Source of the DNA: Thermoanaerobaculia bacterium
GTDB taxonomy: Bacteria > Acidobacteriota > Thermoanaerobaculia > Multivoradales > JAGPDF01
Assembly (NCBI GenBank): GCA_963712855.1
Contig: CAVQJN010000001.1
Coordinates: 358,612-422,611, forward strand
DNA: 64,000 nucleotides
Direction of reading: 5' to 3'
The first letter of the stretch is position 1. Each line of letters starts with the position of its first letter. A program made the translations under genes and the position numbers. Below the pieces are notes generated by a model that was given only the letters and a program-made list of their open reading frames with translations, had not been told where the DNA came from and did not search any database. Shown piece after piece: positions 31,925 to 35,845 of this stretch.

Positions 31925-32908
31925 ATGCGCTACTGGTGGGTGAACCAGAACCAGACTTACCGGCAGGAGGTGACCGGCGGCTACCTCTGGTCTCCCAAGG
32001 TGCGCTCGAACGGCACCCGCAACCCGTTCTACGAGTTCATGCGCGAGGTCGCACCCGGCGATCTGGTGTTTTCGTTCGCGGACACGCGCATCCGCGCCTT
32101 TGGCATCGCCCGCTCGTACGCCTACGAGGCACCGAAGCCAGCCGAGTTCGGGCCGGCGGGCCGCTCCTGGGACGACATCGGCTGGCGGGTGGACGTCCAC
32201 TTCCACGAGGTTCCGACGGTGGTCCGCCCGGTCGAGTGGATGGAGCTGTTACGCCCTTTGCTGCCGCCGAAGTACTCGCCGCTGCTCACCGACGGGCGAG
32301 GCAGCCAGAGCATCTACCTGACCGAGCTCTCGCCGCTCTTGGCCCTGACGCTCGCGGACCTGGTGGGCAGCGAGGTCGCGGCGCTCGCCCGCTCGGAAAC
32401 GATCGCCGAGCCGGACACGGATTCCGCGACGCCGAATCCCGAGCAGTCGCTCTGGGAGGAGCACCTGCGCCAGCGCATCGAGTCGGATCCGGCGCTGACC
32501 ACGACCGAGAAGGAGTCGATCGTCCTCGCCCGCCGGGGCCAGGGCCTCTTCCGTCAGCGCGTGCAACAGATCGAGTCCCGCTGCCGGATCACCGGCGTCG
32601 ACCGCCCGGAGCACCTCCGCGCCAGTCACTGCAAGCCCTGGCGCGACGCCAGCAACGAGGAGCGCCTCGACGGCGAGAACGGCCTCCTCCTGACCCCATC
32701 GATCAACCACCTCTTCGACCGCGGCTTCATTTCCTTCAAAGGTAACGGCGACCTCCTCGTCTCCCCCGTCGCCCACCGCCCCTCCCTCGAACGCATGGGC
32801 GTAGCCACCTCCCACGCCACCAACGTCGGCACCTTCACCCACAACCAACTCGCCTTCCTCGAATTCCACCGAGACAAAGTCTTCCTGCAGTCGAAGGTTG
32901 CGAGATAG
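31925..32908 (+). CDS. EVE/PUA-like domain - HNH endonuclease fusion (candidate modification-dependent type IV restriction endonuclease)
   Basis: N-terminus MRYWWVNQNQTYRQEVTGGYLWSPK...NPFYEFMREVAPGDLVFSF (EVE/PUA-like fold). C-terminal HNH motif RCRITGVDRPEHLRASHCKPWRDASNEERLDGENGLLLTPSINHLFDRGFISF. GC content matches the host. Confidence 0.7.
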   Translation: MRYWWVNQNQTYRQEVTGGYLWSPKVRSNGTRNPFYEFMREVAPGDLVFSFADTRIRAFGIARSYAYEAPKPAEFGPAGRSWDDIGWRVDVHFHEVPTVVRPVEWMELLRPLLPPKYSPLLTDGRGSQSIYLTELSPLLALTLADLVGSEVAALARSETIAEPDTDSATPNPEQSLWEEHLRQRIESDPALTTTEKESIVLARRGQGLFRQRVQQIESRCRITGVDRPEHLRASHCKPWRDASNEERLDGENGLLLTPSINHLFDRGFISFKGNGDLLVSPVAHRPSLERMGVATSHATNVGTFTHNQLAFLEFHRDKVFLQSKVAR

Positions 32909-33200
32909 GCCCCACCACCCGCAAGACGCCCAGCTTCAGATGTGACGACTTGCGACTCGGCTGGCACCTTCTCAGCTCAGATCCACGGCCGCTTGTGCGG
33001 GGCCGTGATTCCCAGGGGGCTACGGGCCTGTTTCCAAGTTCCAATGCCCATCGCCCTCGCTTGACGACTGCTTTCCGTTGCACCATTATTCAATGAAGCT
33101 TCCACGGGCGTCCTACTCGTTACCTCTGCGAGTCGATGGACAATTGAGTGGTCCACGCGACTCTCTACAAGGTTGACTAATAGAAGGGGGGGGCTAGGTG

Positions 33201-35820
33201 ATGCAGCTGCCGCTCCTGGGCAGGATTCAGCAACGCATCGAACTCGATCGCGAAGACGGTGATACAGCCTTCTATTGGGCTCTTTCTCTCTACAGCGAGT
33301 ATGTAACAAAGCTAGTTGTCTCCGCGTTGGTCGCCTGCCTCGGTGAAGATGTCGATAGACACCGATATAGCGCCGAACACAGACTGGTACGAGCAGATGC
33401 GATCGGAGAGTGGGTGGAGACCCTCAATGATCTCCTGATGGGCAGACCCGCACAATTCCTTAGAAGTTCCGCTCAGCCTCTCGCCCGAGAGCTCACCCGA
33501 ACGCGTTGGAAGCGGGGACTGGCGCTACGAGGCGACGTCCGCAGCCTACGAGATTGCGCGACGCCTTCGCATCGAAATAGATAGGCCGGGGAGAAAAGTT
33601 CCCCTTCGTCACTTCTTCTCAATAGCCGCAACGCTCAGAAACAAGACAAGGGGACACGGCGCTCCGACTCCTAGCCAGTGCCAAAGCGTCTGCCTCGATC
33701 TTCATGACGCGATCTCAAACGTGGTCTCCAACCTGCAGGTCTTCCAAGTCCCGTGGGCGCACCTCTATCGAAACCTCTCCGGCAAGTACAGAGTTTCGCC
33801 GCTACACGGGAGTACGGAGAGTTTCGACTACCTCAAGAAGTCGCGGGACATCAGACTTTCCGACGGTGTTCACCTATTCCTTAACGAGCCTCTGCATGTC
33901 CCACTCGTGGTGTCCGATCCAGATCTTCTAGATGTCTTCGTTCCGAACGGACAATTCAAGAGCGCGACTTTTGAGCTGCTTTCGTATGTAACAAACGACA
34001 CGAGACGCACAGAGGGTACAAGGTGGCTGGCGCCTCCTTCACGACTTCCTCTCAGCGAAACCGACGGTGGCACGCGACTGGAACCGGCAGGCAACCTTTT
34101 CGCCAATCTCCCACCACTTCCGCGGGGGTATATCGATCGACCCGGGTTGGAAGATCAACTCGCCCGGCAACTTCTGGAGACAGATAGGCATCCGATTCTC
34201 TCTTTGACAGGCCCTGGCGGAATCGGCAAGACCTCGCTTGCGCTTGCCGTGTTGCACGAGATAAGCCATAGCCTGACCCCTCCATACGAAACAGTTATCT
34301 GGCTAAGTGCAAGAGACACTGACCTGCTTGACTCGGGCCCAAAGCCGGTAAGCGCGAGGGTCGTGACGAAGAGAGACATCGCACAGGCGGCTGTCACGTT
34401 GTTGGAGCCAACTGAAGCGCAAGAGAAGGCATTCGATCCCGTACGGTTCTTTGAGCGCTGCCTTGAACTCGGTGCCGCCGGCTCAACGCTCTTCGTCTTG
34501 GACAACTTTGAGACCGTGGAAAGCACGGCCGATGTATTCCAGTGGATTGACGCGCACGTCCGGCCGCCGAACAAGATTCTCATTACGACTCGCTTTCGCG
34601 ACTTCGTCGGTGACTATCACATTGATGTTCATGGAATGACCGAAGAGGAAGCTGAACGACTTATCGACAAGGAAGCCGCTCGGCTTGGTGTAGAGGCGCT
34701 GATGTCTATTCAGTACCGAGAACAGCTCATTGCAGAGTCATATGGGCACCCCTATGTAATCAAGATCCTGCTCGGAGAGGCGGCACGGACTCGAACGGCC
34801 CACAAACCCGAGCGCATTGTCGCCGGACAAGAGAACGTTCTACGTGCCCTATTCGAGCGGACGTTCGCAAACCTCTCGCCCGGAGCCCAGCGCCAGTTCC
34901 TCTTGTTGTCGAGTTGGCGTGTCCTCGTGCCCGAGGTGGCACTCGAGGCTGTCGCCCTTCGCCCTGAGAACGAGAAGATGGATGTCCAAGGAGCGCTTAA
35001 TGAACTCAAGCGCTTCTCTCTTGTGGAAGAGGTTGTTTCCGACTCTGATGGATCGCTTTTCGTAGGCCTGCCGCTCGCTGCAGCTCTTTACGGCCGACGA
35101 AAGCTGGAGGTCAGCCCCTACAAGGTCGCCATCGAGTCCGACAGGAAATTGCTCATGGAATTTGGCGCCGGGAGGCGAGAAGACGCTCACCGAGGGGTGT
35201 TCCCAAGAATCGAGCGCCTCGTCTCCGCGATCGCAGACCGCGCCAGCGCTGGTAACGAGAGAGTCGCGGACACCCTTCCGATTTTGGAGTACCTAGCTTC
35301 AAGAGTACCTCAGACCTACCTGCGACTGGTTGACCTCGTTCTCAGAGATGACTCTGTTGATGGGCGTGAAGAGAAGGCGAAAACCTATCTCCTCAGCCTT
35401 CTCGAAGCCGACCAGCCGGCGCTACGAAAGACCGCATGGTCGCAACTCGCTGATCTCTCGCGCGCAACAGGCGATGTTGTTGGCGAGGTACACGCCCTCG
35501 TGGAGCAGACGCAGCTACCAACTGCCACGATCGACGAACTCTCCAACGCAGCCAATCGGGTCAATACGCGGCTCTATGACCTCAAGAAAGACCGAACTGA
35601 CAGCGCGTGGTCGCGAGAGGTGATGCTACTCGTTGAAAAGCTCGTCGAGTCGTTGGAGCGGCGGCGAAGAGAACTCTCAGCTACTGACTGTTCTCGATTG
35701 GCCTGGCTTCAGGCAAACGTGGGCAATCAAGAGCGTGCAATTGCCACTGCGCGCTTCGGCCTTAGCCTGGAACCAGACAATCCCTATTGCCAGCGGTTGC
35801 TGCAAAAGCTCGAACCCTAG
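33201..35820 (+). CDS. STAND-class NTPase (NB-ARC/NACHT-like P-loop + C-terminal helical/TPR-like repeats) with unknown ~300-aa N-terminal domain; single frame disruption near 33515 (ORF 33198..33584 continues into ORF 33721..35820 frame without stop)
   Basis: Walker A LSLTGPGGIGKTSLALAV, Walker B/hhhhD LFVLDNFE, downstream helical repeats. The region is ~53% GC against ~69% for the flanks. Strong RBS AAGGGGGGGG before ATG 33201. The frame of 33721..35820 is open back to 33439, and the sequence there reads like protein (DWRYEATSAAYEIARRLRIEIDRPGRKVPLRHFFSIAATLRNKTRGHGAP). Confidence 0.65.
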
Positions 35821-35845
35821 AACCGGCCCTGGAACTCGCGCTCTT

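Follow-up and report, generated by a model that had tools for sequence, protein, structure and literature searches.

The modification-dependent (type IV) restriction endonuclease VcaM4I is known from its crystal structure (6YEX), its biochemistry and its restriction of T4gt, and it works alone (PMC7897488). In this family, 5mC/5hmC is flipped by the N-terminal EVE domain into a pocket of hydrophobic character, after which modified (phage) DNA is cleaved by the dimeric HNH domain. Concerning STAND NTPases, fusions of the type HEPN-STAND-TPR were predicted by Anantharaman et al. (2013), HEPN domains being defined by the motifs Rx4-6H and Ex3[KR] (PMC3710099). Furthermore, genes embedded in type I restriction-modification (R-M) operons proved to be defence systems, e.g., TgvAB (PMC11411939).

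In the window (i.e., the whole stretch of 64,000 nucleotides analysed), a gene for an EVE-HNH nuclease is followed by a gene for a STAND protein (Table 1). These are probably two unrelated, independently mobile single-gene defence modules that are neighbours by chance, and the locus is best explained as a variable site in an Acidobacteriota-like (Thermoanaerobaculia-type) chromosome.

Table 1. Features of the EVE-HNH/STAND locus (positions refer to the window)
Feature	Position	Strand	Evidence
ELWxxDGT-repeat protein, left flank, 474 aa	30475..31899	+	TIGR04534, E 1.4e-51, 7 repeats
EVE-HNH modification-dependent (type IV) restriction endonuclease, VcaM4I family, 327 aa, intact	31925..32908	+	phmmer vs PDB
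EVE (PUA-superfamily) domain, aa 1-147, predicted pocket for flipped 5mC/5hmC base	31925..32365	+	limits after PMC7897488
HNH (beta-beta-alpha-Me) catalytic core, aa 220-272	32582..32740	+	Pfam PF13391 (HNH_2), E 3.7e-10
Asn261 codon AAC, at position of VcaM4I metal ligand D250	32705..32707	+	alignment of 120 homologues
EVE-HNH/STAND intergenic stretch, low GC (0.588)	32909..33197	.	GC, ORF boundaries
STAND codons 1-100, frame 0, start of N-terminal helical domain	33198..33497	+	aligns to residues 1-100 of ~872-aa members
Extra C (GAG CTC ACC C GAA CGC), +1 frameshift	33498..33498	+	family alignment
STAND codons 101-873 and stop, frame +1	33499..35820	+	ORF, homologue alignment
RNKTRGHGA, invariant R-N-x4-H-G-A motif, aa 147-155, candidate HEPN-type RNase active site	33637..33663	+	family alignment, AF2
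Small beta domain after helical domain, aa 186-272	33754..34014	+	AF2 strands, pLDDT ~90
NB-ARC nucleotide-binding module, aa ~319-534	34153..34800	+	P-loop, Walker B, TTR, GHP motifs
C-terminal alpha-helical (TPR-like) repeats, aa ~641-873	35119..35817	+	AF2 model, homologue TPR matches
ALDH-like protein, right flank, 285 aa, host GC	35846..36703	-	Pfam Aldedh positions 12-212 of 461

The first gene had been read in the first-pass annotation as a type IV nuclease with fused EVE and HNH domains, and this was borne out: the encoded protein (N-terminal sequence MRYWWVNQNQTY) is a close full-length homologue of crystallised VcaM4I, its aa 1-321 aligning to VcaM4I 1-307 (E 7.5e-88; phmmer against 6YEX, 6YJB, 6YKF and 6YMG). 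Judged by sequence, it is a member of an already known, well-understood nuclease family, with thousands of homologues at 70-79% identity. The pocket residues Q10, T11, E15, W22, P24, W82, Q128 and Y130(131) are identical to those of VcaM4I; seven of these eight are invariant among 120 homologues, and Q10 is Q in 111 of them. The Pfam EVE profile did not match the protein at E <= 0.1, such that the EVE domain was not recovered by its own profile; it is assigned because of the homology to the VcaM4I structure. The HNH core also matches the PADLOC HNH model PDLC04132 (E 2.7e-22) and retains the equivalents of VcaM4I H224, N241 and D254. Asn261 turns H-N-D into H-N-N; among the 120 closest homologues, 119 have D at this position, and N is found only in the window protein. 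Since D250A strongly impairs VcaM4I (PMC7897488), this unique change of a predicted metal ligand would count against function of the window copy. If functional, the copy would flip and cut modified DNA as described for its family.

Windowed GC content is 0.66-0.73 in the flanks but drops to 0.54-0.60 over about 32.9-35.85 kb, which confirms the low-GC island proposed earlier, albeit with 57% instead of about 53% GC in 32909-35845. It amounts to 0.569 in the STAND gene, 0.672 in the EVE-HNH gene and 0.691 in the window, the two genes thus being 10 GC points apart. The island had been taken as coding from 32909, whereas the STAND gene starts at 33198. The preceding intergenic stretch contains one sigma-70-like site (33061-33089), the frequency of which is not above chance, and does not match Rfam. 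On the left, the ELWxxDGT gene is of host GC (0.665), as stated before and with its identity supported by NCBIfam (cf. Table 1), and belongs to neither defence gene. On the right, the ALDH-like gene is convergent with the STAND gene. It had been assumed to have lost its catalytic half by insertion, but its homologues, more than 100 of which have 285-288 aa and 66-80% identity over the full length, do not support an insertion into an ALDH gene; by these comparisons, it is a naturally short, conserved family and not truncated. Direct repeats, a tRNA gene and an integrase were looked for at the island ends, and none was found.

The STAND protein consists of an N-terminal alpha+beta domain that is specific to the family, an NB-ARC module of the Apaf-1/CED-4 type, and about 230 aa of TPR-like repeats. 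Its P-loop (GPGGIGKT, 34210-34233), the Walker B motif LFVLDNFE, and TTR and GHP motifs are present, and Pfam NB-ARC scores 44.7 bits (cut-off 23.5), in agreement with the P-loop/hhhhD STAND NTPase originally claimed. In the AF2 model of P0001, residues 641-871 are all helical, and some homologues match the TPR families PF13428 or PF14559; this C-terminal region shows the strongest conservation within the protein and presumably represents the ligand sensor. The N-terminal 312 aa have a confident predicted fold (pLDDT 88) that comprises a helical domain with about nine helices and, after it, the small beta domain. For this N-terminus (about 310 aa), Pfam, NCBIfam, PADLOC and PDB sequences yielded no match and Foldseek no fold match to the model, such that it is as unrecognisable as first described; the beta domain, without a match in Pfam, might at a guess bind RNA.

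Two motifs stand out in the N-terminal domain: R147, N148, H153, G154 and A155 are found in all 82 members examined, and 81 of these 82 possess E34 and K38 of an E34-x3-K38 motif (33297-33311). In the AF2 model, RNxxxxH occupies the end of helix 137-149 and the adjoining loop, ahead of the last long helix. RNxxxxH and Ex3K fit the HEPN definition (PMC3710099), and because they are invariant and HEPN-like, we infer from motifs and model that the domain may be a HEPN-like RNase effector. It could also be a new effector (with a membrane, NAD or DNA target) or a ligand-sensing end, which we consider rather unlikely. In its favour, there is no HEPN profile match (the HEPN/Abi profiles of Pfam and NCBIfam match none of 30 STAND members, even at E <= 10) and no significant fold match, the helical domain comprises about nine helices instead of four, and the N-terminal domain is never found outside the STAND family architecture among the best 150 profile clusters; however, R-N-x4-H plus E-x3-K is the sole fully invariant polar cluster, bears the HEPN signature, and lies at the expected secondary-structure position. 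As a HEPN-like effector, the protein would act as follows: in analogy to Avs and NLR proteins, a phage-derived ligand would be bound by the C-terminal repeats, and the NB-ARC module would oligomerise with ATP and bring the N-terminal domains together; E-x3-K and R-N-x4-H would then form a HEPN-like, dimerisation-dependent RNase site, and RNA cleavage would arrest the infected cell.

The gene had been described as encoding a protein of about 870 aa; its NB-ARC STAND identity holds, but it is not a single ORF, a frameshift having remained unnoticed. Frame 0 is open from 33198 to 33584 (128 aa) and agrees with the family consensus up to ...RELT, whereas frame +1 is open from 33439 to 35820 (earliest start codon at 33721) and agrees from ERVGSGDWRY onward. 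Skipping the C at 33498 (in ACCCG) yields a continuous protein of 873 aa, to which more than 2000 proteins with a length of about 872 aa can be aligned in full (53-59% identity, 100% coverage); all homologues are single ORFs. As written, the gene cannot make the full protein. The source annotation, which belongs to a probably long-read assembly (1.67-Mb contig), contains only a 485-aa piece (P0087, 34363-35817).

Recent pseudogenisation and assembly error are about equally probable causes of the inserted base. The chance that the window copy is a true pseudogene, i.e., what is left of a horizontally acquired gene after a recent inactivation, with the islet being half dead, is put slightly below even: the one-nucleotide insertion breaks the frame, the longest product of a restart (from the GTG at 33721) lacks the entire helical domain together with the RN..H motif, the gene is annotated as a fragment only, and the protein departs from 11 of the 231 highly conserved columns (family median 3), as many as in only 5.9% of the members. 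Yet it is a single lesion in 2.6 kb, in-frame stops are absent, the NTPase motifs are all intact, and the extra base sits in a C run. An assembly error may be involved because pepF, in the same window, shows several frame changes while its pieces are still good PepF, which suggests indel noise.

The STAND gene had also been thought to be paired with the type IV nuclease. This was rejected, as EVE-HNH occurs within the 10-kb flanks of none of 80 other STAND loci, and a paired system is largely refuted; in related genomes, EVE-HNH homologues are situated elsewhere, beside toxin-antitoxin modules and IS66 and without STAND. Although the two genes are direct neighbours in the same orientation, with 290 bp between them, a single cooperating system, in which, e.g., STAND senses infection and licenses the nuclease, is highly improbable, considering further that STAND is absent from four EVE-HNH loci on other contigs (L003, L086, L087, L088), that the GC contents of the two genes differ as given above, and that VcaM4I acts by itself (PMC7897488).

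The STAND family is sporadic (211 matches in GTDB species representatives of more than 15 phyla). A search with the N-terminal profile yielded 654 clusters, the best 150 of which are proteins of about 830-930 aa with the N-terminal domain or fragment-like shorter ones, except for one variant of 1224 aa; among these 150, the domain is never swapped or free-standing. In 73 of 79 loci, the gene has a lower GC content than its surroundings (mean -9.7 points), transposases and integrases recur nearby, and one locus is an integrase island with a MvaI/BcnI restriction enzyme, Vsr and Dcm. In 8 of 80 loci, type I R-M genes are found at a distance of up to 5 kb (P = 3e-5 relative to a background of 0.0153 taken from PMC13581612), and in 5 STAND is placed between hsdM/hsdS and hsdR, an association concentrated in one sub-clade, the loci of which are not independent. 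Because of the GC deficit, the R-M neighbours, and the recurring integrases and transposases, the family appears to be a horizontally moving one of defence type. To this extent, the earlier proposal of an undescribed Avs-like STAND defence gene fits; its Avs part fits less well, with a fixed N-terminus and no match among the PADLOC v2 models including Avs. The 50,697 phage records searched contained no match, which is neutral.

A signalling or regulatory NTPase without immune function (as MalT, AfsR, or another non-defence STAND) that moves horizontally for other reasons is improbable. It would agree with the missing PADLOC match, with the strongly conserved C-terminus, with the interspersed defence and non-defence STAND clades of Lee et al., and with the about 90% of loci in which the gene stands alone among housekeeping genes without a recognisable defence neighbour. 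However, no HTH, BTAD or other DNA-binding domain was detected, and a conserved neighbour that could be regulated is missing (no neighbour family is common to more than 8 of 82 loci). Moreover, the gene is distributed in an extremely patchy way with a constant GC deficit, and several phyla have it inside type I R-M operons.

In these operons (5-6 of 80 loci), STAND is situated between hsdM/hsdS and hsdR. The order hsdM-hsdS-STAND-hsdR with gaps of about 10 bp, confirmed by Pfam, is seen in Verrucomicrobiota, Planctomycetota, Gemmatimonadota and Acidobacteriota. By analogy, this sub-clade might comprise PrrC-like guards, silenced by the Hsd complex and firing once this complex is disabled by an anti-restriction protein of a phage; the comparison draws on the established biology of PrrC. 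PrrC and RloC are HEPN nucleases in an equal position (PMC3710099). The guard reading covers only these few loci, however, whereas R-M genes are lacking next to the window gene and most others, and it is improbable.

Compared with known systems, VcaM4I (TspA15I group) resembles its window homologue in full-length colinearity, EVE pocket residues, linker and HNH core, differing in D250 (Asn in the window copy) and, by sequence, in a linker about 14 aa shorter. The STAND family, in contrast to this known nuclease neighbour, is a widespread, NLR-like ATPase with a front domain that matches no solved structure. With Avs1-5 and Avs7-21 it shares the single gene with an N-terminal non-NTPase domain, STAND NTPase and C-terminal helical repeats, the patchy, horizontally transferred distribution, and the defence context of some members. 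Unlike in Avs, the PADLOC models do not match, the C-terminal region (about 230-310 aa) is below the 400-aa sensor cut-off of Lee et al., and the N-terminal domain is fixed, whereas typical Avs effectors are swapped; the strongly conserved C-terminus also differs from fast-evolving sensors. Pfam NB-ARC above threshold, Walker A/B, TTR and GxP are shared with the NB-ARC (AP-ATPase) of Apaf-1, CED-4 and plant NLRs, but the protein is bacterial, and its flanking domains are unrelated (no CARD, CC, TIR, WD40 or LRR). PrrC/RloC and TgvAB are unrelated proteins, similar to the STAND sub-clade in their placement in type I R-M operons (hsdS/hsdR gap), although the window gene has no such neighbour. 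The HEPN-STAND-TPR proteins of Anantharaman et al. (2013; Npun_F6454, Desac_1927) belong to a recognised HEPN family, whereas the window family, without a HEPN profile match, is likened to them by motifs and layout; its helical domain is much larger and a beta domain is appended, but both possess an N-terminus with Rx4-6H/Ex3[KR] followed by a STAND NTPase and TPR.

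The EVE-HNH nuclease and the STAND gene of the window are independent single-gene modules, and the two-gene system proposed in the first-pass annotation, a STAND defence gene paired with a type IV nuclease, is refuted. This is concluded because EVE-HNH was found by tblastn in none of 80 loci with homologues of the STAND gene and their 10-kb flanks, because STAND stood beside none of the EVE-HNH homologues in four loci on other contigs, because clustering of neighbouring ORFs yielded no family common to more than 8 of 82 STAND loci, and because the GC contents of the two window genes differ by 10 points. 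In related Thermoanaerobaculia, the EVE-HNH homologues lie without STAND beside IS66 and toxin-antitoxin pairs (FitA/PIN, ParDE, Gp49/HTH). At most, the adjacency of the two genes represents "defence-island" clustering.

Features of the window in and around the islet
Feature	Position	Strand	Length	Remarks
ELWxxDGT-repeat gene	30475-31899			TIGR04534, E 1.4e-51
EVE-HNH nuclease gene	31925-32908	+	327 aa	reading frame intact
STAND gene	33198-35820	+		
ALDH-like gene	35846-36703	-	285 aa	convergent with STAND gene
pepF-like (oligoendopeptidase F) gene	38980-40860	+		aligns to PDB 3CE2 and 2QR4, E about 1e-79

Judged by its sequence, the nuclease belongs to the VcaM4I family and carries one uncommon replacement in its active site. 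In a phmmer search of the PDB, its residues 1-321 align to residues 1-307 of 6YEX (E 7.5e-88), with EVE domain, linker helix and HNH domain colinear (domain limits according to PMC7897488). The PDB entries 6YEX, 6YJB, 6YKF and 6YMG represent VcaM4I, the prototype EVE-HNH modification-dependent restriction enzyme, in whose EVE domain (aa 1-147) 5mC or 5hmC is flipped into a pocket of Q10, T11, E15, W22, P24, W82 and Y130 while Q128 intercalates; cutting is performed by an HNH dimer, and phage T4gt is restricted (PMC7897488). This end-to-end homology bears out the earlier description of an EVE/PUA-like domain fused to HNH in a type IV architecture. The window protein is identical to VcaM4I at all eight of the pocket and intercalating positions, seven of which are invariant across the 120 closest EVE-HNH homologues, and Q10 is Q in 111 of these. 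Pfam recognizes solely HNH_2 (aa 220-272, E 3.7e-10) and PADLOC matches with generic HNH models, while the Pfam EVE profile PF01878 gives no match at E <= 0.1; despite this miss, the fold is taken to be EVE because the crystal-structure homologue VcaM4I is EVE.

Concerning the HNH active site, where the substitution D250A cripples VcaM4I (PMC7897488), the equivalents of H224, N241 and D254 are conserved. The position of the metal ligand D250 is occupied by Asn in the window (AAC, 32705-32707) and by Asp in all of the other 119 close homologues. As other HNH enzymes are active with an H-N-N version of the motif, the effect of this replacement is uncertain: the nuclease could be attenuated, it could function with H-N-N, or the base could have been called wrongly. 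EVE-HNH homologues number thousands of proteins (70-79% identity) in Acidobacteriota, Planctomycetota and others, such that the nuclease half of the islet was correctly recognized but is already known, and adds merely one more VcaM4I homologue. Two of the EVE-HNH loci on other contigs contain, 3' of the nuclease gene, a short ORF matching SLFN-g3_helicase (L003:2138-2323, 61 aa; L086:9018-9416, 132 aa), which looks like a gene remnant travelling with the nuclease.

The neighbouring ALDH-like gene had been thought to have lost its catalytic half, in keeping with an insertion. This does not hold, since more than 100 full-length homologues (66-80% identity) are equally short with 285-288 aa; the family is therefore naturally short and was not cut by the island. 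The Pfam match of the protein covers positions 12-212 of 461. Of the aldehyde dehydrogenase fold, the ~286-aa family (homologues P0241-P0360) retains just the cofactor-binding N-terminal half, to which a short tail is added at the C-terminus; it is frequent in Thermoanaerobaculia as well as in other Acidobacteriota. At the ends of the islet, neither boundary repeats nor a tRNA gene were found, and the islet contains no integrase, no promoters or terminators above chance and no Rfam element. With the ALDH-like gene at normal length and repeats, tRNA gene and integrase lacking, the insertion of an island into a host gene is not supported. The nearest available relatives carrying the ALDH-like gene, L084 and L085, share 73-80% identity in its protein and are too distant for a clean presence/absence comparison. 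On the other side of this gene they are loosely syntenic with the window, and beyond its 3' end L084 carries BrnT/BrnA (10934-11487), L085 a 449-aa gene of no assigned family, HigBA (HigB/HTH) and ORF6N (10901-13872). Because different cargo is carried there, the position 3' of the ALDH-like gene looks like a variable cargo spot.

The GC drop described earlier behind the nuclease gene is confirmed by windowed values of 0.54-0.60 across about 32.9-35.85 kb versus 0.66-0.73 on both sides; by segment, GC amounts to 0.569 in the STAND gene, 0.588 in the 290-bp intergenic stretch, 0.672 in EVE-HNH and 0.691 in the whole window. The STAND-coding segment does not begin at 32909, as first assumed, but at 33198. 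Furthermore, the STAND protein of ~870 aa that had been described is obtained at full length only by correcting a frameshift, and no single ORF as written encodes it: a 128-aa ORF (33198-33584) is followed, with a +1 shift at 33498, by an open frame (33439-35820) whose first start codon is a GTG at 33721. Dropping the C at 33498 (third C, GAG CTC ACC C GAA) fuses both frames to a protein of 873 aa, and the alignment to the homologues is unbroken across this site, frame 0 following the consensus as far as ...RELT, with frame +1 taking over from ERVGSGDWRY. Programmed frameshifting is ruled out, as ACC-C-GAA offers no slippery site and every homologue is a single ORF.

The window copy is thus either broken or mis-assembled. 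If the extra C is genuine, the full STAND protein cannot be made, and a restart at 33721 would lose the entire helical domain; the copy may then be a pseudogene, in agreement with its departure from the family at 11 of 231 highly conserved columns (family median 3; equally deviant members 5.9%). On the other hand, the extra C may be such an error: it is the sole lesion and sits within a C run, all motifs are intact and stop codons are absent, which weighs against a pseudogene. The assembly is probably a long-read one (1.67-Mb contig), and pepF, 4 kb away, is frame-broken with each piece a good PepF, a pattern typical of local indel noise. In this pepF-like gene, three out-of-frame stretches and two in-frame stops occur between about 39.93 and 40.6 kb; they look like clustered assembly indels and are relevant to the STAND frameshift.

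The corrected protein yields more than 2000 protein matches, the best 120 of which are nearly all 867-890 aa long, with 52-59% identity and 99-100% query coverage. When one genome of each GTDB species was scanned, 211 family members came to light, i.e., in roughly 0.1% of species, scattered over more than 15 phyla: Planctomycetota, Acidobacteriota, Latescibacterota, Chloroflexota, Verrucomicrobiota, Myxococcota, Alpha-, Beta- and Gammaproteobacteria, Bacteroidota, Gemmatimonadota, Actinomycetota, Patescibacteria and others. Culturable hosts are found in Ralstonia, Chromohalobacter, Thioalkalivibrio, Myxococcus, Micromonospora and Pseudomonas. A scan of viral contigs with one family member detected none, and 50,697 phage records gave no match; the family is present on megaplasmids of Ralstonia solanacearum. 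In two such megaplasmid matches (NZ_CP155589.1 and NZ_CP155592.1; both 126618-130070) the STAND match is split into two pieces over 3.45 kb instead of 2.6 kb, which suggests interruption by an insertion; the gene is intact in five sister strains.

The gene product is an NB-ARC (AP-ATPase-clade) STAND NTPase with Avs-like architecture. Its central module matches Pfam NB-ARC PF00931 (44.7 bits, cut-off 23.5), exhibits the succession of NBD, helical and winged-helix fold known from Apaf-1 and CED-4, and retains in the window copy Walker A (GPGGIGKT), Walker B (LFVLDNFE), TTR (LITTR) and GHP (GHPYV). Past the winged helix, the AF2 model contains about 230 aa of helical TPR-like repeats, and the C-terminus is the most conserved region across the family.

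The N-terminal 312 aa, modelled alone with AF2 (pLDDT 88, pTM 0.85), form a helical domain (aa 5-183) and a small beta domain (aa 186-272). The first-pass annotation had recognized nothing similar to this part, and the searches agree: Pfam, NCBIfam, PADLOC and PDB sequences gave no match to the domain, and Foldseek none below E 0.5 to the model. A BTAD/SARP or other regulator domain, which would have pointed to a housekeeping function, was found neither by Pfam nor by further searches. A profile of the domain, run against 1.84 billion cluster representatives, retrieved 654 clusters (50% identity); among the best 150 of these, the proteins either carry the domain N-terminally and are about 830-930 aa long, or are shorter and fragment-like, apart from one variant of 1224 aa. 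Since the listed matches keep the same architecture, the domain is regarded as family-specific and not as a shuffled module. In the 1224-aa variant (P0484), it is situated at 365-671 and preceded by an extra N-terminal extension of ~360 aa.

Within this domain, R147-N148-x4-H153-G-A is the sole fully invariant polar cluster, shared by all 82 members although identity falls as low as 37%, and E34-x3-K38 (E34-YVT-K38) is present in 81 of 82. HEPN RNases possess Rx4-6H with a polar residue after R and an upstream Ex3[KR], the former motif occupying the terminus of a core helix and the loop ahead of the last helix (PMC3710099). All three features, the Rx4-6H with its polar residue, the Ex3[KR] and the motif position, recur in the STAND N-terminus, where RNx4H spans the end of helix 137-149 and the loop 150-157 ahead of helix 158-178 in the AF2 model; neither the HEPN four-helix-bundle fold nor a HEPN profile gave a significant match. 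From the motifs and their position in the model, the domain is tentatively considered a HEPN-type effector, at somewhat less than an even chance. HEPN RNases generally need dimerisation to form the active site, e.g., RNase L, Csm6 and Cas13, and 2',3'-cyclic phosphate ends are the hallmark of their cleavage. Bacterial fusions of N-terminal HEPN, STAND and TPR were predicted in 2013 by Anantharaman et al.

Concerning the genomic context, the STAND gene falls short of the GC content of its flanks by more than 3 points in 73 of 79 loci (mean -9.7) and never exceeds it, so that the low-GC island is a property of the family more than of this particular insertion. The deficit reflects either constant re-acquisition or selection for low GC. 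STAND gene GC correlates with host GC (r = 0.71). The commonest recurrent neighbours are HsdM, HsdS and HsdR: type I R-M genes occur within 5 kb in 8 of 80 loci (P = 3e-5 against a background of 0.0153, the figure used by Lee et al. 2026, PMC13581612). In five loci (Vicinamibacteria, two Verrucomicrobiota, Planctomycetaceae, Gemmatimonadaceae), STAND is embedded 3' of hsdM or hsdS in the same orientation. The gap to the preceding hsdS is ~10 bp in four of these loci, and hsdR is situated 3' of STAND in four, in three at a distance of ~10 bp; in the fifth locus (L070) the contig stops short of this point. The embedded copies, with 54-74% identity, belong to one sub-clade that also includes L052 and thus accounts for six of the eight R-M-associated loci; L029 and L083 constitute independent associations. 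In repeated cases, genes lying inside type I R-M operons have turned out to be defence systems, e.g., TgvAB (PMC11411939). In the type I R-M locus L073 (12583-16446), three extra ORFs are found between STAND and full hsdR. They encode an N-terminal piece of HsdR that is truncated, a 691-aa DEAD/Helicase_C protein and a DprA/SLOG-like protein of 417 aa, and may represent a second embedded defence cassette.

Another STAND locus is an island that holds an integrase alongside an MvaI/BcnI restriction enzyme, Vsr and Dcm. At most loci the neighbours are housekeeping genes, and a transposase or integrase is often close by. Among 139 neighbour ORFs, Pfam identified chiefly integrases and transposases plus housekeeping singletons; a PADLOC scan of the same ORFs (pseudo-alignment) returned solely RT and TnpB-like hits with two members each and was uninformative. 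The STAND gene is probably a mobile gene of defence type.

An Avs/NLR-like scheme, drawn by analogy, appears to be the most economical model: the C-terminal repeats would bind a phage cue, the NB-ARC module would oligomerise with ATP, the N-terminal domains thus paired would become an active RNase, and the infected cell would be arrested by this activity. Against the model stand the lack of a HEPN profile or significant fold match and the location of the most conserved region at the C-terminus, unlike in rapidly evolving sensors. A role of the family in defence is considered reasonably probable. The composite proposal goes further, in that the ~872-aa proteins would represent a new and widespread type of immune receptor made up of a single protein, in which a phage cue oligomerises the Apaf-1-like NB-ARC and thereby activates a HEPN-type RNase of new fold (Ex3K + RNx4H), with the sub-clade wedged between hsdS and hsdR guarding type I R-M in a PrrC-like manner; with all its parts taken together, it is rather unlikely to be correct.

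The STAND half of the islet nevertheless represents a large, conserved and apparently uncharacterised family (more than 2000 proteins, 654 clusters at 50% identity and more than 15 phyla) that is missed by the PADLOC models (version 2.0.0, 2023) and whose N-terminal domain, although confidently modelled, resembles no structure among those searched. Should its members be immune receptors, the bacterial NLRs would be extended by an Apaf-1-like one that has a new effector, and a simple test of proximity-induced HEPN activation would become possible. Members in cultured organisms can be cloned, such as those of R. solanacearum Po82 (megaplasmid 128253-130838), C. marismortui DSM 6770 and T. halophilus HL17, and the family-wide GC deficit together with the operon-embedded sub-clade provides handles on how single defence genes travel.

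Compared with Avs, the STAND protein has no match to the Avs models of PADLOC v2.0.0 at E <= 0.1, and its post-NTPase region of about 310 aa would be too short for the 400-aa sensor cut-off of Lee et al. 2026, whose STAND catalogue comprises 589 clades (PMC13581612). The general organization is similar to that of Avs, as an N-terminal domain, a STAND NTPase and a repeat region are united in one protein, with putative effector and sensor roles at its two ends.
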